From Acidimicrobiia bacterium (GTDB lineage Bacteria; Acidobacteriota; Vicinamibacteria; Vicinamibacterales; UBA2999), in assembly GCA_038144855.1 (NCBI GenBank), contig JAYQOO010000001.1, forward strand, positions 74,931 through 138,930: a DNA stretch of 64,000 bases, in the 5' to 3' direction. The notes beneath the pieces were generated by a model. That model was not told the origin of the DNA, did no database searches, and worked only from the letters and a program-made list of their open reading frames with translations. How positions within the stretch are numbered: the first letter of the stretch is position 1; each line of letters starts with the position of its first letter. Positions 48,421 through 56,505 of this stretch are shown here, piece after piece. The position numbers were made by a program, and so were the translations under genes.

Positions 48421-48774
48421 TCACGCATTTTCGTTGCCGGCCAGCAGGTCGTCCACCGACACCTGCTCGAAATCGTAGGCCAGTACCGCTTCGGCGGATG
48501 TAAAAAGCAACTTCCCTAGTTCACTGTGCGACGGATGATCCAGGTACGCACGTAGGTCGGCTTCGGAATCGAAGTCGAGAATGGCCGAGTACTCAAAGTG
48601 CTCGGCCATTGCTGTTTCATAGCCAGGCCGGTGCAGAAGAACGCGACGTCCGACGCGCGCCTGCCTGATCTGCGGTATGCCATCGATGGCGTGCTTCAAC
48701 GCGTCGATGAGCGCAGCCTGCTCGCTGACCGGCAACGTAGGCCTGGGCCGAAACAAGACGACGTGGGAAATCAC
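48421..48774 (-). CDS. Dabb (stress-responsive A/B barrel) family protein
   Basis: MISHVVLFRP...IPQI...FDSEADLRAYLDHPSH. Confidence 0.85.
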   Translation of the reverse strand: MISHVVLFRPRPTLPVSEQAALIDALKHAIDGIPQIRQARVGRRVLLHRPGYETAMAEHFEYSAILDFDSEADLRAYLDHPSHSELGKLLFTSAEAVLAYDFEQVSVDDLLAGNENA

Positions 48775-49673
48775 TCGTCACCCTTCTTCTTGCCCTTTGC
48801 CTCCCACCGTGAGCGAATGTTCTTCTTGAAGCGCGTCCACTTCGCCTTCTTCGCGTCCTTGTACTTTTGACGCGGATCCTTGTGCTCACCGCCGGGACGC
48901 CAGTTCTTGTCGCGCTTCGCCTCGATGCCCAATGCCTTCTTGTATTCCTCCTTGGGCACCCACTTCCTTTTTGGCGGAGCGTCGCTGGACCCGCCCTTGG
49001 GCTTCCATTCGAGCTTCCCCTGGGTGTTTGACGCTCGATCGCCGGCCGCTGACGAGCGCTTCGGCCGCCACTCGGCGTTGCGCCCACGATCGTTCGAGCT
49101 CTTCGGCTTCCATGCCGGCTTAGCCCCGCGATCGAACGAGCCTTTCGGCTTCCACGCGGGCTTGCCGTCGCGCTCGCCTGATGCCTTTGGCTTCCACTCA
49201 GGCTTTCGCTCTCGATCAAAGGAGCGCGGCCGCTCGGCCCGGTCGGCACGTTTCGGGGCCGGCACGAATTCGCCCTTGGGTTTCCATTCCAGCTTGTCGT
49301 TGGCATCTCGAGCCGGCGGCGGAGTGGACGGTTCGCCGCGCGGGGTCCAAGCCGAACGCTTCGCGCCGTCGGCGCGATCACGAAACGGCTTGCGCTCCCG
49401 GTCACCGAACGGCTTTCGATCGCGGTCGCGGAAGCCGCCCCCGCTCTGCCGAGAGTCGCCGCGCCGTCCCATCTCGCCGCGCATGTGCATCGCGTCCTGC
49501 GCCTCGTGCCGGGAACTCCACAACTTGCCGTTTTGCCACCACATCATCTTGGCGGTCGCGTTCTTGGCTTGCAGCCGCTTCAGGGTCGGCATCAGGTCCT
49601 CCTGCGCGGACGCCCTGAACGCGGTCGGCTGATCGTCGACGATGATGGTCCAATACGCGTAGCGCGGAGGCAT
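48771..49673 (-). CDS. Hypothetical basic low-complexity protein with WKPK repeats
   Basis: Open frame with coding-like codon usage; nine W-x-P-[KRG] motifs. Confidence 0.75.
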   Translation of the reverse strand: MPPRYAYWTIIVDDQPTAFRASAQEDLMPTLKRLQAKNATAKMMWWQNGKLWSSRHEAQDAMHMRGEMGRRGDSRQSGGGFRDRDRKPFGDRERKPFRDRADGAKRSAWTPRGEPSTPPPARDANDKLEWKPKGEFVPAPKRADRAERPRSFDRERKPEWKPKASGERDGKPAWKPKGSFDRGAKPAWKPKSSNDRGRNAEWRPKRSSAAGDRASNTQGKLEWKPKGGSSDAPPKRKWVPKEEYKKALGIEAKRDKNWRPGGEHKDPRQKYKDAKKAKWTRFKKNIRSRWEAKGKKKGDE

Positions 49674-49693: not shown

Positions 49694-50374
49694 ATGGAGT
49701 TGGTCGGAGCGCCCGTCGCCGAGCTGAGGTCGCTGTTGTCGGCATCGTTCGAAGATTGGTCGAACTCGAGCGACAAGCGCCAATCATGTGGATTGTTGGG
49801 TGGTGCTACCGCGCTGATCTTCCTCGGGGCCCTTCGCCAGGCGCAAGTTGACTGGCGCCAGATTACGCTGTTCTGGGTCGACGAACGAGCGGTCTCACCT
49901 GAAGATCCAGAATCCAATTTCGGCGTCGCGGAACGCATGCTGCTCCAGCCCCTTGGCGCCAAGGCGCCGACCGCGATCCGGATGGCGACCGACAAGATGC
50001 CCCTCGGCCAGGCCGCGCTCTGGTACGACGATGCGCTTGCGACGTACCTGCACAATGGACCGCTTGATCTTGCGTTGCTCGGTGTTGGAGAAGACGGGCA
50101 CATCTGTTCGCTGTTCCCGGGCCACCGGGCGTTGATGTACGACGACTTGAGGGTCGTGGCGATTGAAGACGCGCCCAAGCCGGAGGCGAGGCGCCTGTCG
50201 TTGTCTTTGAGGTTCGTGACGCAGACCAAGAAGATCTGGTTGATCGCGCTCGGCCCGCGCAAGCTGCCCGTCCTGCAGGCGGCGATCAAGAAGACCAGCA
50301 ACGCCACGCCGCTGGATCTTCTCCTCCGTCAAGCGAAGGACGTCACCGTGTTTACGGATCAGGCCATCAGGTAG
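49694..50374 (+). CDS. pgl: 6-phosphogluconolactonase
   Basis: FWVDERAV...ESNF, DLALLGVGEDGHICSLFPG, RLSLSL. Confidence 0.88.
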   Translation: MELVGAPVAELRSLLSASFEDWSNSSDKRQSCGLLGGATALIFLGALRQAQVDWRQITLFWVDERAVSPEDPESNFGVAERMLLQPLGAKAPTAIRMATDKMPLGQAALWYDDALATYLHNGPLDLALLGVGEDGHICSLFPGHRALMYDDLRVVAIEDAPKPEARRLSLSLRFVTQTKKIWLIALGPRKLPVLQAAIKKTSNATPLDLLLRQAKDVTVFTDQAIR

Positions 50375-51803
50375 CCAGGCGTTTCAGCTTCTCCACCAGG
50401 GTCGTTCGCTTGAGGCCCAGCAGCCGCGCGGCGGCACCCTTGTTTTGTTCGGTGCGCGCCAGCGCGCGCTCGATCATGTCCCTTTCGATCTGCGCGACCA
50501 GCCCGGGAAGGTCAAGCCCATCGGGCGGCAGGTCGAGGGTCGGCTTGACGCTTGCCGCCCCGGTGGCCTGGACGTCGGCCGGAAGATCGGCGACTTCGAT
50601 CTGCGTGCGGCTGCCGATCATCGCCAGAGCGCGCTCCATCGCGTTTTCGAGTTGCCGCACGTTGCCGGGCCACGCAAACGCCATCAAGTGCCGCATCGCG
50701 TCCTGGGCCACGGTCACCGCAACCACGTCCTTGTCGAGCCCGGACTCCTTGTCAATCCGGCGGTACTTCTTGATGAACGAATTCACCAGCAGCGGAATGT
50801 CTTCGACACGCTCTCTGAGCGGTGCGAGCTGAACCGGGATCACGTTCAATCGGTAGTAAAGATCCTCCCTGAACGTTCCGTCCTTCACCATTTTCCAGAG
50901 ATCAGCGTTCGTCGCGGCCACCACGCGCACGTCGACCTTGATGGTGTGCGTATCACCAAGGCGCTCGAACTCGCGTTCCTGCAGGACGCGCAGCATCTTC
51001 ATCTGCAAGGCCATCGGCATCGTTCCGACTTCGTCAAGGAACAGCGTGCCGCCATCCGCCTGCTCAAGCCGTCCCTGGCGCATGGCCACTGCGCCGGTGA
51101 AGGCGCCACGCGCGTGGCCGAAGAGTTCAGCATCGAGCAGCGTTTCGGGAATGGCGCTGACGTTGATGGCCACGAACCGGCCGCGATGGCGGGGGCTGGT
51201 CTGGTGGATCGCGCGGGCCACCATTTCCTTGCCGGTGCCGGTCTCCCCGGTGATCAGGATCGTGGCCGGTGCCGGGGCCACGGTTTCAATCAACTGGAAC
51301 AACGCGCGCATCGGCGCGCTCTTGCCAACCATCGACCCGAGACCGAACCGCTCGTCAAGCTGTTGATGCAGATATGCGTTCTCACTCTGCAGGCGCCGCT
51401 GTTCCAGTGCCTTGGTGAGCACGTGCATCAACTCATCGAATTGGAAGGGCTTGGCGATGAAGTCAGCGGCGCCAAGTTTCATCATGCCGACGGCATCCTT
51501 CACCGTGCCGTAGCCGGTCACGACGATTGCGACAATGCCGGGATAGCGTTCGAGTGCCGCCTCGATGACGCCTCGGCCCTCTTCGGCCAGGGCGACCGAC
51601 TCGCCTGAGGATTCACTCTGTGCGCCGGTGACGCGGGGAAGACGCAGGTCGGAAATGATGACATCGAAGGCAAAGCCGTCGAGTGCCTTGCGAGCTGACT
51701 CGGCATCTGCCGCCTGCGTGACGTTGAAGCCGGCGTCGACGAGGCGCTCCGCCACGACGCTACGGAGCGCTTCTTCATCGTCGACAAGGAGAATGTGGGT
51801 CAC
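50367..51803 (-). CDS. Sigma54-dependent two-component activator (REC + AAA+ + HTH)
   Basis: ILLVDDE...IISDLRLP; ITGETGTGKE, ELFGHARGAFTGA, LFLDEV, FREDLYYRLNV, WPGNVRQLEN, AARLLGLKRTTL. Start taken at GTG 51803. Confidence 0.95.
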   Translation of the reverse strand: MTHILLVDDEEALRSVVAERLVDAGFNVTQAADAESARKALDGFAFDVIISDLRLPRVTGAQSESSGESVALAEEGRGVIEAALERYPGIVAIVVTGYGTVKDAVGMMKLGAADFIAKPFQFDELMHVLTKALEQRRLQSENAYLHQQLDERFGLGSMVGKSAPMRALFQLIETVAPAPATILITGETGTGKEMVARAIHQTSPRHRGRFVAINVSAIPETLLDAELFGHARGAFTGAVAMRQGRLEQADGGTLFLDEVGTMPMALQMKMLRVLQEREFERLGDTHTIKVDVRVVAATNADLWKMVKDGTFREDLYYRLNVIPVQLAPLRERVEDIPLLVNSFIKKYRRIDKESGLDKDVVAVTVAQDAMRHLMAFAWPGNVRQLENAMERALAMIGSRTQIEVADLPADVQATGAASVKPTLDLPPDGLDLPGLVAQIERDMIERALARTEQNKGAAARLLGLKRTTLVEKLKRLAT

Positions 51804-51845
51804 GTTATTTGGCTCAATCTGTGAAAACAGGCCAATATCTGCGAA

Positions 51846-51861
51846 TGTCAAAGTATTGACA
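51846..51861. promoter_or_regulatory. Dyad TGTCAA-AGTA-TTGACA overlapping a likely sigma70 promoter of the activator gene
   Basis: Perfect 6-bp inverted repeat; minus strand has TTGACA (51880-51875)-17-AATACT (51857-51852). Confidence 0.65.
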
Positions 51862-51940
51862 GTGTGCTCACGGCTGTCAAGACCTGCATGGCTAATCCCA
51901 AAAAGGCAGGCACCGATACAACCTCTGGAGGCAAACCCCA

Positions 51941-52132
51941 GTGGAACGGCAAACAGTCAGCATCATGAAGGCGTGCGAAATGGTCGGCGTGAGCCGCCGC
52001 ACGATCTACAACTGGATCGCAGCGAACAAAGTCGAGTATCTGCGTACCGCAGGCGGCAGCATACGCATTTTCGTGGACACGCTGTGGCGCGAGCCGGACG
52101 GCACCAAGCACCCGAATCATCCTGCTGCCTAG
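51941..52132 (+). CDS. Small excisionase/MerR-like HTH DNA-binding protein
   Basis: SIMKACEMVGVSRRTIYNWIAANKVEYLRTAGGSIRI; GGAGG SD. Confidence 0.85.
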   Translation: MERQTVSIMKACEMVGVSRRTIYNWIAANKVEYLRTAGGSIRIFVDTLWREPDGTKHPNHPAA

Positions 52133-52164
52133 TTGCGAGCGGCTCGTAGTTCGTAGTTAGCCGG

Positions 52165-52356
52165 ATGCACACCAACTCGAAAGAGCTGCTGCACAAGCTC
52201 AATAATCAACTCGGCGTGATACTTGCACACGCCGAGTTGCTCGAGACCAAGGCGCAGGACGCGTCGCAGAAGTCGCGCGCGTCCCTGGTCGTCAACGCCG
52301 CACTGCAGGCGATGGCCGTGTCGCGCGAACTGCGCGAAACTGTCGGCGAGAAGTAG
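52165..52356 (+). CDS. Stand-alone HisKA/DHp-like protein (63 aa)
   Basis: ELLHKLNNQLGVILAHAELL, an H-box pattern with no ATPase domain. Confidence 0.75.
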   Translation: MHTNSKELLHKLNNQLGVILAHAELLETKAQDASQKSRASLVVNAALQAMAVSRELRETVGEK

Positions 52357-52479
52357 CTAGGCCCTCAGGCCTGCGGCCGACGGTCCTCGCGGCCACTGCT
52401 TTCCCATCCCACCTCAAATTTCTGGCGGATTCTCGGTCTGATCACCGATCTGTGAGTGTCTGTTCAAGAACGGAATATA

Positions 52480-52673
52480 CGTCAAAAAAATGGCAACACT
52501 CCCGAAAAAAGCGTCAAAACATTGTTAGTAAAAACTTGATCCTGAGACGCCGTTGCCCACGTGCTTGGATGCGCAGCAGCGTATAAACACAGCTAAATCA
52601 AGCGCTTACATCGACAAGATTGCTTCGCTGCACACTCTTGACCACGGTTATACGGCCTTGGCACTCTGGTTGC
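52480..52673 (+). promoter_or_regulatory. Sigma54 promoter with two enhancer-like sites and an IHF site
   Basis: CGTCAAAAAAATGGCA 52480-52495, CGTCAAAACATTGTTA 52512-52527, IHF-consensus AATCAAGCGCTTA 52596-52608, TGGCAC-TCTGG-TTGC 52659-52673. Confidence 0.8.
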
Positions 52674-52688
52674 GTTAGGGCAGGCAAC

Positions 52689-53765
52689 ATGAAAACCGAA
52701 ACTGTCCTGAAGGCCGACGCGAGCCCCGCTAGCCGCGTGGAAACCGGTCTACCGTTCGTGGAGGCGCTCGCCCGCCGCATGGCCGCGACCATGCCGCATT
52801 CGATCGACCTGAGCGACCTGGTGCAGGACGGTGTCATCGGCTTGATCGACGCCGCGCATCGTTTTGACGATTCGAGGGGGATCAAGTTCGAGACCTTCGC
52901 CGAGCGGCGGATTCGTGGCGCCATGATCGACGCGCTGCGCAAGGATGCGTGGCCACGCGGCGTGCGACGCGTTCGGCGCGAGCTTGAGGCCGCGCGCGAG
53001 AAGCTGCGCGCGACCCTCGGGCACGAGCCCTCGCTGGCAGACCTCGCTGAAGCCATTGGCTCTGATGAGAAGCGGCTGGGCAAGACGATCGTGCGCATCA
53101 ACACGATCGAATCGACGTCGCCGTTCTCGAGCGCCGAAAGCGTTGATGAATCACAGTTGCCGGCCGTGCTGGTGCCGGCGGAGCCGGAGCGTCCCGACAC
53201 GCAGTACGAGCGCGACGAGGTCAAGAACCGCGTGCGCAACGCGATTGCGACGTTGCCGGTGCGCGAGCAGAAGGTGATCGCGCTCTACTACTACCGCGAA
53301 GTCACGATGAAAGACATCGGCGCCGAGCTTGGCGTCAACGAATCACGCGTTTCGCAGTTGCATGCGCGCGCAATTCGCCGCCTGCGCGAGGCGCTCGGCG
53401 CAGACGTCACGCCGATGGCGGCGTCGGAGGCGTTGCGTGACGCGATCGCGATGATGGAGGCCAAGCCGCGCATGGCCAAGGCATCCATTCCAATGCCCGA
53501 GTCCGATACGCGCGTCTCACTCGCCGCGCAGAAGCGAGCGGGTCTCGTGCTGGTAAAGGCGGGAAGCCGCGAGACCAACGCCGAACAGGATCAGGTGAGC
53601 GTGTCCCTAGCCGCACGCAGCAAGTCTCCCAACCTGAAAGGCTTGGAGAGCCAGCGGCAGCCCGTCTCTTCGAGGAAGCGTTCGGCGTCCGTGCCGGCGA
53701 CATCGCCGGTGACGAATATGACGCGTCGCGCCAGGGCGGGCGTCGCGGCCGCCATCGCGCGGTAG
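52689..53765 (+). CDS. FliA/WhiG (sigma28)-family RNA polymerase sigma factor
   Basis: DLSDLVQDGVIGLIDAA.RFD..RGIKFETFAERRIRGAMIDALR, MKDIGAELGVNESRVSQLH. Start ATG 52689 or GTG 52737; the 3' end overlaps the convergent kinase. Confidence 0.9.
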   Translation: MKTETVLKADASPASRVETGLPFVEALARRMAATMPHSIDLSDLVQDGVIGLIDAAHRFDDSRGIKFETFAERRIRGAMIDALRKDAWPRGVRRVRRELEAAREKLRATLGHEPSLADLAEAIGSDEKRLGKTIVRINTIESTSPFSSAESVDESQLPAVLVPAEPERPDTQYERDEVKNRVRNAIATLPVREQKVIALYYYREVTMKDIGAELGVNESRVSQLHARAIRRLREALGADVTPMAASEALRDAIAMMEAKPRMAKASIPMPESDTRVSLAAQKRAGLVLVKAGSRETNAEQDQVSVSLAARSKSPNLKGLESQRQPVSSRKRSASVPATSPVTNMTRRARAGVAAAIAR

Positions 53766-55135
53766 AACTGCATGCCGTCAATACGCGGCATCTTGAGATC
53801 GCACACGATCAAGTCGTAACGCTGCTCGGTGAGGCGGGTGAGCCCCTCCTCACCGTCGCCGGCCCGGTCGACCGCAAAGCCCGCATCGCCGAGCGCTTCG
53901 GATACCGCGACGGCGAGCGCGGGCTCATCCTCCACCACCAGCACGCGCAATCCCTTGAAGGCTTCGAGCGAGATCGGTTGCTGCGGCACGCGCGCCGGCG
54001 GCGTATTCAAGTGCTGCCCGGTGACCGGCAGCTCGATGAAAAAGCTCGCACCTGATCGGCCGCCGTCTGCCTGCACTGATTTCGACTCGAGCCAGATGCG
54101 TCCGCCGTGCTCCTGCACGATGGCGTACGCGACCGTCAGTCCGAGCCCCGTGCCCTGGCCGACCTCCTTCGTCGTGAAGAACGGATCGAACACCTTGCCA
54201 ACACGGTCCTCCGGAATCCCCGGCCCGTCGTCACTGACTTCGAGGACCGCGGAACCACGATCGCGGTCGTGCGTGGTGCGCACGACGATCGTGCCCTTCC
54301 CGTTGGCGCCAATGCAGGCCTGCTCGGCGTTGATCAACAGATTCAGCAAGACCTGCTTGATCTGGTGGCCATCGGCAAACACTTCCGGTAAGCCAGTGGT
54401 CAGGGCTTCGACAACATGAATGTTGGAGACCTTCTGCTCATACGCACGGAGAGCGAGCGTCTCGCGCACCACCTGGTTCAGATCCACCATCGCGCGCGTG
54501 GTCTGTCGTTTGCGCGCGAAGGTCAGGAGATTGCGGACGATCCGCGCGGCGCGCTCTGACTCGGCGAGGATGACTTCCAGTCCCTGCCTGGTCTTGTCAT
54601 CGACGTTGCGCTCCGCAAGACGTTCGGCCCACGACAGGATCGTCGCGAGCGGATTGTTCAGCTCGTGCGCAACGCCCGAGATCGTCTGGCCGAGGGCCGC
54701 CATTTTTTCGGCCTGCAACATCTGGTAGCGGCCATCGCGGGTCTGATCCTCACGCTTCTTGCGTTCGGAGACGTCGCGGACGAGCGCCGTGATCTGAAGT
54801 GCCTGCACCTCCGCCTCGTAGCCAGCTGAGGCAGTCACCTCAACCCAGATCGGCACGTTGTCCACGCGCCGCAGTCGGATCAGGTAATCCTGGACGCCGC
54901 CTTCGCGGTCCAGGAGCTCAATGAACGTTTGCCGTGCCTGCGGATCAACGAATCGGGATGGTTCGAACGGTTGCACGACGCTTTCGGCAGCGTCAGGGGC
55001 GTAACCAAAGATCTGCTTGAGGTGCGGATTCGCCGACAGCGTGGAAGATGAATTCGCCGCGAGCGTGCCAAGGTAAACACCCTCGCGGACGGACTCAAAG
55101 AGGCGTTCGACGAACGTTCGACGGTCGTTCGACAT
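53591..55135 (-). CDS. Hybrid sensor histidine kinase (PAS + HisKA + HATPase + REC)
   Basis: GVAHELNNPL, QVLLNLLINA, DDGPGI, DPFFTTKEVGQGTGLGL, LVVEDE...VCDLKMP. Confidence 0.95.
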   Translation of the reverse strand: MSNDRRTFVERLFESVREGVYLGTLAANSSSTLSANPHLKQIFGYAPDAAESVVQPFEPSRFVDPQARQTFIELLDREGGVQDYLIRLRRVDNVPIWVEVTASAGYEAEVQALQITALVRDVSERKKREDQTRDGRYQMLQAEKMAALGQTISGVAHELNNPLATILSWAERLAERNVDDKTRQGLEVILAESERAARIVRNLLTFARKRQTTRAMVDLNQVVRETLALRAYEQKVSNIHVVEALTTGLPEVFADGHQIKQVLLNLLINAEQACIGANGKGTIVVRTTHDRDRGSAVLEVSDDGPGIPEDRVGKVFDPFFTTKEVGQGTGLGLTVAYAIVQEHGGRIWLESKSVQADGGRSGASFFIELPVTGQHLNTPPARVPQQPISLEAFKGLRVLVVEDEPALAVAVSEALGDAGFAVDRAGDGEEGLTRLTEQRYDLIVCDLKMPRIDGMQFYRAMAAATPALARRVIFVTGDVAGTDAERFLEETGCRWLSKPFRLGDLLRAARDTLT

Positions 55136-55167: not shown

Positions 55168-55725
55168 TCAGTGTGACGTCTTCTTCGCGGGTGGCTGAGG
55201 TGTCGGCGTCTTGCCGGCCTCGTTGCCAGGCGTCCACTTACGTTCGATGGCGGCACGGATCGAGCGAACGTCGGCGCCCGAGGTGTACATCTGCATGGCT
55301 TCACGCGCGACGTCGACACAGATGGTGCAACCGAAGCCGTGCGTGTCCCACTCGAGCACGTTGCCCTTGTTATCACGCCGCGCGACGAAGCACGACTCGT
55401 TGGCCTTGTGACCCTGGGCGCCGCAGCCGCAGTAGCACGGCACGAAGCTGAGGATCTCCGGGTGTTGCGCGGCGAAGTCGTAGGTTGCGCGGACGATATC
55501 CATTGGACGCACCGGCGCAAAGCCGACATTCGGCAGAGGCGGCACGCTCACGCGCGGCTTGGCGGCTGCGGCCGCCTTTGGCGCCGGCGCGGCGGCCTGG
55601 GCCTTCACTGTTGGCCGGACGGCAGACGCCTTTTGTGGGGTCACCTGGGCGGCGACCACGACGGTTGCAATCAGCGCCATGGTTGCCAACGCGAGCAAAG
55701 CGGAGACGAATTTCACAGATTTCAT
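55168..55725 (-). CDS. PCYCGC-motif-containing exported protein
   Basis: Signal peptide; FVPCYCGC..GH..NESCF and C-terminal GCTIC. Confidence 0.85.
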   Translation of the reverse strand: MKSVKFVSALLALATMALIATVVVAAQVTPQKASAVRPTVKAQAAAPAPKAAAAAKPRVSVPPLPNVGFAPVRPMDIVRATYDFAAQHPEILSFVPCYCGCGAQGHKANESCFVARRDNKGNVLEWDTHGFGCTICVDVAREAMQMYTSGADVRSIRAAIERKWTPGNEAGKTPTPQPPAKKTSH

Positions 55726-55914: not shown

Positions 55915-55995
55915 GTCGCGGCCGAATTTCCGACACGCGCCTAGTTCAACCTTCGCGACTCTTCGCCGATTACGAACCCAACAGGGGTTCGTAAC

Positions 55996-56505
55996 ATGCG
56001 CTCTTTCGTCTTGATTGTCGCCATTACTCTGTTAACTGCCGTTCCGTCGTTCGCGCAAACCGACGCGGTCGATCCATCCGTCCTCGGACGCGTCGATCCA
56101 GCGGGGGATGAAACTGCGAACGCCGATCGGAATCAGCCACCCCGGCGCGGAGTGTCGAAGTGGTGGTCGATCGCGATGGCTTCGGGATACATGGCCGATG
56201 GCGCCACCGCTTGGTGGGCGATGAGTCAGTCGGGGCCGGCAGCCAAGATTCGCGAGGCCAACGGCTTCTACCACAAGCTCTTCGGTCCTGACGTTAAGGG
56301 CTGGCAGGTCATGGCCTTCAAGACCGGTCAAGCTGCGGTCTTGGGATTCGGACTGCACCAGATCGCCAAGCACACCCCCGGCAAAGAACGCGTCGTCTAT
56401 GTCGCCGTGTTGCACACGGTAGTGTCCGGGGTGATCAGCACGGTCAACATCAAGCGCGGCCTGAGCGCCCGCAGGCTGAACGCCGCTTACGCGGTGCAGT
56501 GGTAG
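55996..56505 (+). CDS. Hypothetical exported/membrane protein (DUF5658-like D..T...EAN pattern)
   Basis: Signal peptide, hydrophobic helices, ADGATAWWAM...REANG. Confidence 0.55.
   Translation: MRSFVLIVAITLLTAVPSFAQTDAVDPSVLGRVDPAGDETANADRNQPPRRGVSKWWSIAMASGYMADGATAWWAMSQSGPAAKIREANGFYHKLFGPDVKGWQVMAFKTGQAAVLGFGLHQIAKHTPGKERVVYVAVLHTVVSGVISTVNIKRGLSARRLNAAYAVQW

Follow-up and report, generated by a model that had tools for sequence, protein, structure and literature searches.

The window analysed here is a 64,000-nucleotide stretch (contig JAYQOO010000001.1 of assembly GCA_038144855.1) of a 4.25-Mb acidobacterial genome, probably of the order Vicinamibacterales, a group that is abundant in soil and water, hard to grow and almost unstudied with regard to regulation. 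Between positions 50367 and 55135 it carries a compact regulatory module (Table 1), in which genes for an NtrC-type sigma-54 activator and a soluble hybrid histidine kinase flank genes for a helix-turn-helix (HTH) protein, a DHp-only protein of 63 residues (the small protein in what follows) and a sigma factor paralogous to FliA and WhiG. A sequence-only reading of this interval had proposed a self-contained phosphorelay, running from the hybrid kinase through the small protein to the activator and from there to the sigma factor. All of the genes that it listed, together with an exact sigma-54 promoter, are confirmed in this interval by Pfam, by NCBIfam and by inspection of the sequence, and its interpretation finds partial support. 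Almost every genome of the order carries the module, whose cis-elements are readable and directly testable. The evidence leans towards a conserved, self-contained transcriptional switch in which the small protein would be a receiver-directed feedback part driven by a sigma-28-type factor.

Table 1. Genes and sequence elements of the module and its immediate surroundings (positions in the window; ORF, open reading frame).
Feature	Position	Strand	Basis
NtrC-type sigma-54 activator, REC + AAA+ + HTH_8	50367-51851	-	Pfam, NCBIfam
Dyad TGTCAAagtaTTGACA at activator start/promoter	51846-51861	.	GTCA-N6-TGAC shape
Putative sigma-28/sigma-D-type promoter of HTH-small operon	51892-51918	+	Conserved in 42/42 loci
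HTH_17 (excisionase/MerR-like) protein, 63 aa	51941-52132	+	Pfam HTH_17 8.8e-8, TIGR01764 3.1e-8
DHp-only protein, 63 aa	52165-52356	+	hhalign/BLASTP to kinase DHp, AlphaFold2
Two GC-rich hairpins 3' of small gene	52358-52402	+	RNAfold -32.5 kcal/mol
Two enhancer-like dyads, GTCAaaaaaaTGGC (52481-52494) and GTCAaaacatTGTT (52513-52526)	52481-52526	.	Conserved in 41/41 loci
IHF-like site AATCAAGCGCTTA, between enhancer and promoter	52596-52608	+	Sequence reading
Sigma-54 promoter TGGCAC-N5-TTGC, TGGCACtctggTTGC	52659-52673	+	Conserved in 41/41 loci
FliA/WhiG-family sigma paralog, 358 aa	52689-53765 (ORF 52620-53765, likely ATG 52689)	+	TIGR02479
Soluble PAS-like hybrid histidine kinase	53591-55135	-	Pfam
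PCYCGC-domain exported protein	55168-55725	-	PF13798 6.1e-26

Conservation of the module

The analysis covered 42 module loci and a set of 61 related genomes. The small gene is present in 54 of the 61 relatives (40 of the 44 good genomes), and the order activator(-), HTH(+), small(+), sigma(+), kinase(-) is repeated in all loci examined, which represent 19 families. A lack of co-conservation had been named beforehand as an objection to the phosphorelay; this objection fails because the module is kept across the 19 families. In a sample of the phylum the small gene is restricted to the order, occurring in 31 of the 37 members sampled. Activator orthologs are 57-88% identical at all module loci, and the HTH protein is 66-98% identical across the order and missing from three loci (L013, L015 and L028). 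All module genomes tested have a kinase ortholog, almost always next to the other module genes; in G045 it lies 92 kb away. Neither the small gene nor the module sigma gene occurs in five genomes (G008, G017, G037, G052 and G055).

The DHp-only protein

The small protein had been described as nothing more than the H-box helix pair of a kinase, and both alignment to the kinase DHp and structure prediction agree with this description. In BLASTP, residues 10-56 match the DHp domain of the neighbouring kinase with His10 placed on His157 (E = 1e-4), and an hhalign comparison of 19 small-protein orthologs with 17 kinase orthologs superposes the same two histidines with a probability of 92% (E = 5.8e-7). 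Within a genome the closest sequence relative of the small protein is often the DHp of the adjacent kinase itself (in G040, for example, with E = 0.0014). The AlphaFold2 model, computed from a 57-sequence alignment, is a two-helix hairpin (helices 5-28 and 33-61; pLDDT 92.7), and its top Foldseek matches include the GacS DHp from the RetS-GacS complex (7n0e_A, TM 0.80, the best full-length match), RetS, ShkA and the ERS1 DHp. The window protein has no Pfam or NCBIfam match, HisKA (PF00512), Hpt (PF01627) and FlgM (PF04316) included, and a PDB sequence search with the family profile returned only one kinase at E = 0.39.

His10 is invariant in 57 diverse members of the family, as are L12, L16 and A39, while N13, N14, Q15, G17 and the A23-E24-L25 stretch are nearly so. 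The residue after the histidine (H+1) is Lys, Arg, Gln or Ser and never acidic, and H+4 is Asn14. A search of 1.84 billion representatives returned 220 clusters of the family; the 150 family representatives listed are all 51-220 residues long and none has a CA (ATP-binding) domain. A CA-like domain is likewise absent from the window protein and its orthologs, and none is evident in the longer members examined. The small protein is thus a DHp-only protein, real, conserved and novel as a family; with about 220 clusters and no Pfam model above threshold, this family is the kinase phosphotransfer domain in its smallest natural form.

Promoter elements and transcription

The exact sigma-54 consensus TGGCACtctggTTGC is the only one in the window and one of six in the genome, with 15 nt between its end and the ATG of the sigma gene. 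A -24/-12 element lies upstream of the sigma gene in 41 of 41 loci, and GTCA-N6-TGAC dyads, mostly two of them about 31-32 bp apart and 80-210 nt upstream, are found in the same 41 of 41; rpoN is present in the genome. The two dyads of the window have a spacing of 32 bp and precede the -24 element by about 135-180 nt. The IHF-like site that follows them is only partly conserved within the genus. Another dyad, allowing at most one mismatch, adjoins the activator start in 30 of the 42 loci; in the window a promoter scan placed a minus-strand sigma-70-like promoter (TTGACA-17-AATACT) across it. A cascade in which the activator would act through the sigma-54 promoter on the sigma-28 paralog is well supported by these order-wide elements, and this part of the earlier wiring stands.

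The sequence-only reading had also suggested a search for sigma-28-type promoters, and one such element precedes the HTH-small operon. The pattern CTA-N18/19-CCGATA occurs once per locus in 42 of 42 loci, always in the activator-HTH (or activator-small) intergenic region and directed toward HTH-small, and it has no other match in the 1,149,148 nt of locus sequence scanned. Its window copy has CTAATC at -35 (51892-51897) and CCGATA at -10 (51913-51918), and the loci together give the consensus CTA[AC][AT][GC]-N15/16-CCGATA. The promoter type expected for the sigma-28 family is TAAA-N15-GCCGATAA, and to judge from its letters the conserved element would be a promoter of the sigma-28/sigma-D type. 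The module sigma would be its obvious reader, because it is the only FliA-family factor in the genome, where flhA is absent too. With such a promoter the HTH-small operon would lie downstream of the sigma factor and therefore be a feedback element. The order proposed earlier for the upstream half of the pathway, from hybrid kinase to stand-alone HisKA protein to activator, is in part at odds with this position.

RNA contigs from four aquatic metatranscriptomes cover the HTH and small genes. One contig of 484 nt from run X25 (51941-52424, six differences) spans both and ends after the two hairpins, which shows that HTH and small are co-transcribed; the hairpins are a possible weak terminator. 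Small pieces of the activator and kinase genes are also seen among the RNA contigs, and the sigma gene is covered by none of them, which proves nothing because contigs show presence, not absence.

The close linkage of the HTH and small genes extends to fusion. Some contigs carry HTH-small fusion ORFs of 147 and 182 residues (among the fusions are P0182 on a 445-kb contig and P0211), and an HTH_17 gene also lies upstream of the small gene in a subfamily whose small protein is lengthened considerably at its N terminus (MFAHD...DLSRWIGPLSPAF); these variants were noted at L127 6001-6444, P0211 and L126 227-694. The small protein might accordingly be read as a dimerisation or regulatory partner of the HTH protein, the complex being the output regulator and phosphorylation of His10 perhaps setting its activity. 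Adjacency, co-transcription, the single fused ORFs P0182 and P0211 and the recurrence of the pair in the extended subfamily all speak for such a partnership. The three loci that lack the HTH gene nevertheless keep the small gene, the HTH gene was not seen next to the distant homologs described below, and the fusions are rare and might be products of frameshift errors, so that we regard this as the least probable of the readings considered here.

The sigma paralog and the flagellar connection

The sigma gene product scores 206.9 bits against TIGR02479 (FliA/WhiG; cutoff 189.6), with Sigma70_r2, a weak Sigma70_r3 and Sigma70_r4 present, and no other protein of this genome reaches that cutoff. 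No flagellar genes lie beside the module, as had been noted before, and flhA (PF00771) is without a match in the whole genome (100% complete); it is likewise absent from 48 of the 61 relatives. In the 13 flagellate relatives a second FliA, scoring about 230 bits, is encoded next to flhA. The module sigma is distinct from this flagellar FliA; it occurs in genomes with and without flagella, at scores of 185-208 bits. In the window it has a C-terminal tail of 125 residues (53388-53765) ending in AAAIAR. Such a tail, 60-142 residues long in nearly all loci examined and 24 residues in G045, contains the conserved motifs AVLAFxQKP, GVVLPY and RSRAARSKS and always ends in ...A[AV]A[IVAM]AR. The last 175 nt of the sigma gene (53591-53765) are antisense to the kinase receiver coding region, as in about half of the loci; at the others the tail stops before the kinase gene with the same C-terminal motif. 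The tail was considered as a fused FlgM and this was rejected (hhalign probability 0.7% against a FlgM; no Pfam match).

Distant homologs of the small protein (MH[RK]LRNILG...) occur in another Acidobacteriota family, and a search with a distant homolog as the query returned two proteins only. In GCA_040755995.1 the distant homolog is the first gene of a small-fliA-flgM operon with a chemotaxis cluster alongside, and two further distant homologs are flanked by flgE, or a methyltransferase gene, on one side and by fliL-fliO-fliP on the other. These loci suggest that the oldest association of the family is with sigma-28 and flagellar genes, and since neither kinase nor activator was seen in them, the partner of the small protein could be the sigma factor or a flagellar protein.

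One form of this idea is that the small protein acts on the sigma paralog, as an anti-sigma or co-factor that replaces FlgM in cells without a flagellar export apparatus. Its gene is immediately upstream of a fliA-type gene both in the order and in the distant small-fliA-flgM lineage, and it is lost together with the module sigma. Sigma-28-dependent expression would also be like that of flgM in Legionella: FliA and FlgM are retained in the non-flagellate Legionella oakridgensis, and flgM expression is sigma-28-dependent in flagellate and non-flagellate Legionella alike (PMC5655016). The small protein is, however, not simply an anti-sigma factor, because the distant operon also contains the gene of a normal FlgM. 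Moreover, no FlgM or RsiG motif was found in it (the RsiG-type c-di-GMP motif E-x3-S-x2-R-x3-Q-x3-D is absent by eye), two other distant genomes place its gene between flgE and fliL, away from fliA, and such a role would not account for the H-box similarity to kinases. An action on the sigma factor is therefore improbable in our view.

The module as a whole looks like a flagellar regulatory hierarchy that has been kept in mostly non-flagellated genomes. In the FlrA/FleQ, FlrBC/FleSR and FlgSR hierarchies a soluble PAS kinase and an NtrC-type activator likewise stand above a sigma-54-dependent fliA; a sigma-28-dependent small feedback gene lies beside fliA in such systems, and in L. oakridgensis the regulators are kept without the flagellum. 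The module differs from them in that its sigma factor is a tailed paralog, FlgM is not linked and the feedback genes encode the HTH and DHp-only proteins. It would exemplify the re-use of the flagellar sigma-54 to sigma-28 hierarchy after loss of the flagellum.

The hybrid kinase and the activator

The kinase has a weak PAS_9 match followed by HisKA, HATPase_c and REC domains and no hydrophobic segment. It has the features of a hybrid kinase: H157, D403, D446, T476 and K498 are invariant in the ortholog alignment and the catalytic residues of its receiver are complete. The activator comprises REC, Sigma54_activat (1.5e-72), AAA_lid_14 and HTH_8 domains, with readable GAFTGA and Walker A motifs, a start at TTG 51851 or GTG 51803 and D68 (ORF numbering) as the phospho-acceptor. 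Its acceptor Asp, GAFTGA motif and HTH_8 domain, the sigma-54 promoter with upstream sites and the presence of rpoN in the genome mark it as NtrC-type; it reaches no NCBIfam equivalog cutoff (AtoC 424 versus 714). Its receiver contains a 16-residue insertion (TGAQSESSGESVALAEE; 51594-51641, residues about 71-87) in the beta3-alpha3 loop, right after D68, which is found only in this genome among the 18 orthologs compared.

A mutual-information analysis of covariation among the small protein, the DHp of the kinase and the two receivers (38 sets, Neff 31) gave no domain pair that stands out, and its top pairs track phylogeny. In two lineages kinase W169 has become Cys or Leu and activator L29 has become Phe or Tyr, with no change in the receiver helix of the kinase itself. 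As the two residues lie in the kinase DHp and in the activator receiver helix, this pattern is an anecdotal hint of what direct transfer from kinase to activator would give. The Rec_inter signature, reported as 'FATGUY' (PMC9981736), does not discriminate here: the receiver of the kinase reads FVTGDV and that of the activator VVTGYG.

Proposed circuit

In the circuit that we propose, the soluble PAS hybrid kinase would set the phosphorylation of the NtrC-type activator. The phosphorylated activator, bound to the paired GTCA-N6-TGAC dyads, would together with sigma-54 fire the promoter of the FliA/WhiG paralog, and the paralog would then transcribe the HTH-small operon and probably also a few other genes. 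The DHp-only protein would form a homodimeric four-helix bundle and dock on the receiver of either the activator or the kinase, where its His10 would move phosphate and close a feedback loop.

As to the direction in which phosphate would move, our preference goes tentatively to a drain or phosphatase on the receiver that would reset the activator. This is favoured slightly over a shuttle because of the non-acidic H+1 residue, the Asn at H+4 and the feedback expression. In HisKA kinases, kinase activity depends on an acidic H+1 residue and phosphatase activity on Thr or Asn at H+4, and the DHp domains of EnvZ and NtrB, when isolated, take up phosphate and also remove it from their regulators. 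EnvZ (domain A) and the NtrB DHp, as well as Spo0E and CheZ, illustrate that a helix-pair dimer alone can dephosphorylate a receiver, and the small protein has the H-x-x-x-N signature of HisKA phosphatases without the acidic H+1 of active kinases. The EnvZ and NtrB fragments are laboratory constructs, however, the catalytic motifs of Spo0E and CheZ differ, and the activity of the small protein is predicted from its sequence.

Several observations weigh against a receiver-directed DHp protein within a self-contained switch. The Pfam HisKA match of the family is weak (6 of 19 orthologs, best E = 0.014, below the cutoff), and the Foldseek matches of the model have no significant E-values, because a helical hairpin is a generic fold. 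G016 has lost only the small gene, with a CCGGGAT-type repeat in its place (L040 8236-8565), and the remaining module is intact; in G050 a 454-residue insertion sequence (IS) transposase (L039 9327-10691) lies between the HTH and sigma genes, no small gene was detected between these two, and the remaining module is again intact. Kinase and activator are not among the genes seen beside the distant homologs in the small-fliA-flgM and flgE-small-fliL loci. On the output side, a genome-wide search with a position weight matrix built from the 42 promoters showed no enrichment (15 matches versus 25-30 in shuffles), and an OmpA-like gene considered as a target was rejected, having a sigma-70 promoter (TTGACA-17-TAATCT) in relatives.

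Next in rank to the drain is the linear relay of the sequence-only reading, in which phosphate would pass from kinase His157 to the kinase's own receiver Asp446, on to His10 of the small protein and finally to activator Asp68, the small protein replacing an Hpt domain. We consider it rather unlikely. The invariance of His10 within the H-box, the complete catalytic residues of the kinase receiver and the strict co-conservation of the parts are all consistent with a relay, and a non-acidic H+1 residue suits a protein that is never autophosphorylated. The ShkA-ShpA-TacA system of Caulobacter and the LuxQ/LuxN-LuxU-LuxO system of Vibrio are precedents: ShkA-ShpA-TacA and LuxQ-LuxU-LuxO feed sigma-54 activators via a phosphotransferase, and both systems share with the module a hybrid kinase, a small stand-alone His protein and a REC-AAA+-HTH activator of sigma-54. 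ShpA and LuxU, however, are Hpt four-helix monomers, whereas here a DHp-type hairpin with a kinase H-box is encoded by a gene probably driven by the downstream sigma factor, and transfer is only proposed. Five module-bearing genomes (G005, G045, G047, G054 and G060) have no Hpt domain at all, which again favours the relay. The absence of an Hpt protein, on which the relay had been argued, holds at the module itself but not for this genome, where three Hpt matches occur elsewhere, including a 117-residue stand-alone Hpt on contig 30.

As a relay component the small protein had been likened to ChpT (CckA-ChpT-CtrA) and Spo0B (Spo0F-Spo0B-Spo0A), DHp-derived dimeric phosphotransferases between receivers. 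No sequence relation to either was detected; moreover, ChpT and Spo0B keep a C-terminal CA-like alpha/beta domain and have about 190-225 residues, whereas the small protein is a bare 63-residue helix pair. The sigma-28-type promoter would further put the small gene downstream of the very step that it is supposed to enable. The kinase H-box is of the NtrB type, the usual direct partner of NtrC-type receivers, and the W169/L29 co-changes in two lineages with an invariant kinase receiver helix point the same way. The relay is also at odds with the otherwise intact modules of G016, where the small gene is deleted, and G050, where it is undetectable beside the IS element, and with distant homologs that have no kinase or activator among the neighbours seen.

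If a relay did operate while the small gene was driven by the sigma-28 paralog, the feedback would be positive and the switch therefore bistable. The full version of this idea, in which the bare 63-residue DHp would be the relay phosphotransferase of a self-locking, flagellar-derived developmental switch controlling cell-envelope genes in non-motile Acidobacteriota, is unlikely.

Besides the favoured drain and the relay, the small protein might be a non-catalytic mimic of a DHp domain, a sigma-28-induced feedback inhibitor that forms a heterodimer with the kinase DHp in the manner of RetS-GacS or caps a receiver. The structural neighbours noted above include the GacS DHp, RetS and ShkA, the nearest in-genome relative is often the DHp of the neighbouring kinase, and the feedback position of the promoter would suit an inhibitor. 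The Foldseek E-values are not significant, however, and a pure binder would not need the invariant His and the Asn13/Asn14 pair at order-level divergence and in a second Acidobacteriota family. In RetS-GacS, too, DHp-DHp contact inhibits the kinase, but RetS is itself a complete hybrid kinase and can dispense with its His, whereas the His here is invariant. A mimic is accordingly a good deal less plausible than the relay.

Whether the small protein is a drain, as we tentatively prefer, or a shuttle bears on more than this locus, as the answer would show what a DHp domain is capable of when no ATP-binding partner accompanies it, and by what route hybrid kinases signal where a genome lacks Hpt domains.

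The stand-alone Hpt of contig 30 (C30:7089-8091, locus L044) is an ORF of 117 residues that overlaps, in another frame, the end of a REC-containing ORF. It may derive from a REC-Hpt protein by frameshift, and hybrid kinases might use it as an alternative partner.

Candidate target genes

The sites ranked highest by the position weight matrix mostly lie 0-30 nt before ORFs, which encode an NlpC/P60 lipoprotein, an ExeA-like ATPase, a CarboxypepD_reg protein, an Ig-like lipoprotein and an SBP_bac_5 protein; one further top site is 130 nt upstream of a 480-residue ORF without a Pfam match. The promoter of the NlpC/P60 gene is kept through the genus and was seen in 4 of 12 distant module genomes, and this cell-wall hydrolase is the best candidate target of the sigma paralog. 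In G008, a member of the genus that lacks the module, the corresponding promoter stretch is written as N.

Two other patterns were tried and set aside. The strict sigma-28 consensus TAAA-N14-16-GCCGATA has no match in the genome compared with one to three in shuffles. TCAA-N15-GCCGAT has 43 genome matches compared with about five in mononucleotide shuffles, and only 6 of the 43 are intergenic; the excess is most likely a codon-phase artefact inside genes (NTC-AAS ... G-CCG-ATC), an effect that can mislead motif scans when the genome is high in GC.

The relaxed consensus T[AC]AA-N14-16-GCCGAT[AT][AT] has a single intergenic match in the genome, TCAA-N15-GCCGATTA at 55946-55972. It lies 0.2 kb from the module and 25 nt before the gene of a 169-residue exported protein (55996-56505), which has no homolog in any other module locus.

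Neighbouring genes

The gene of the PCYCGC-domain exported protein, separated by a 33-nt gap from the kinase gene and upstream of it, is a frequent conserved neighbour of the kinase in synteny comparisons and probably shares its operon. On the other side of the module, the minus-strand interval 48771-49673 encodes a 300-residue protein without a Pfam match, in which a conserved N-terminal domain of 60 residues (MPPRYAYWTIIVD...) is followed by R/K/E/D-rich EWKPKG repeats. This protein may belong to the module, because its gene comes directly after the activator gene on the same strand in most families; in the window a 6-phosphogluconolactonase gene intervenes.

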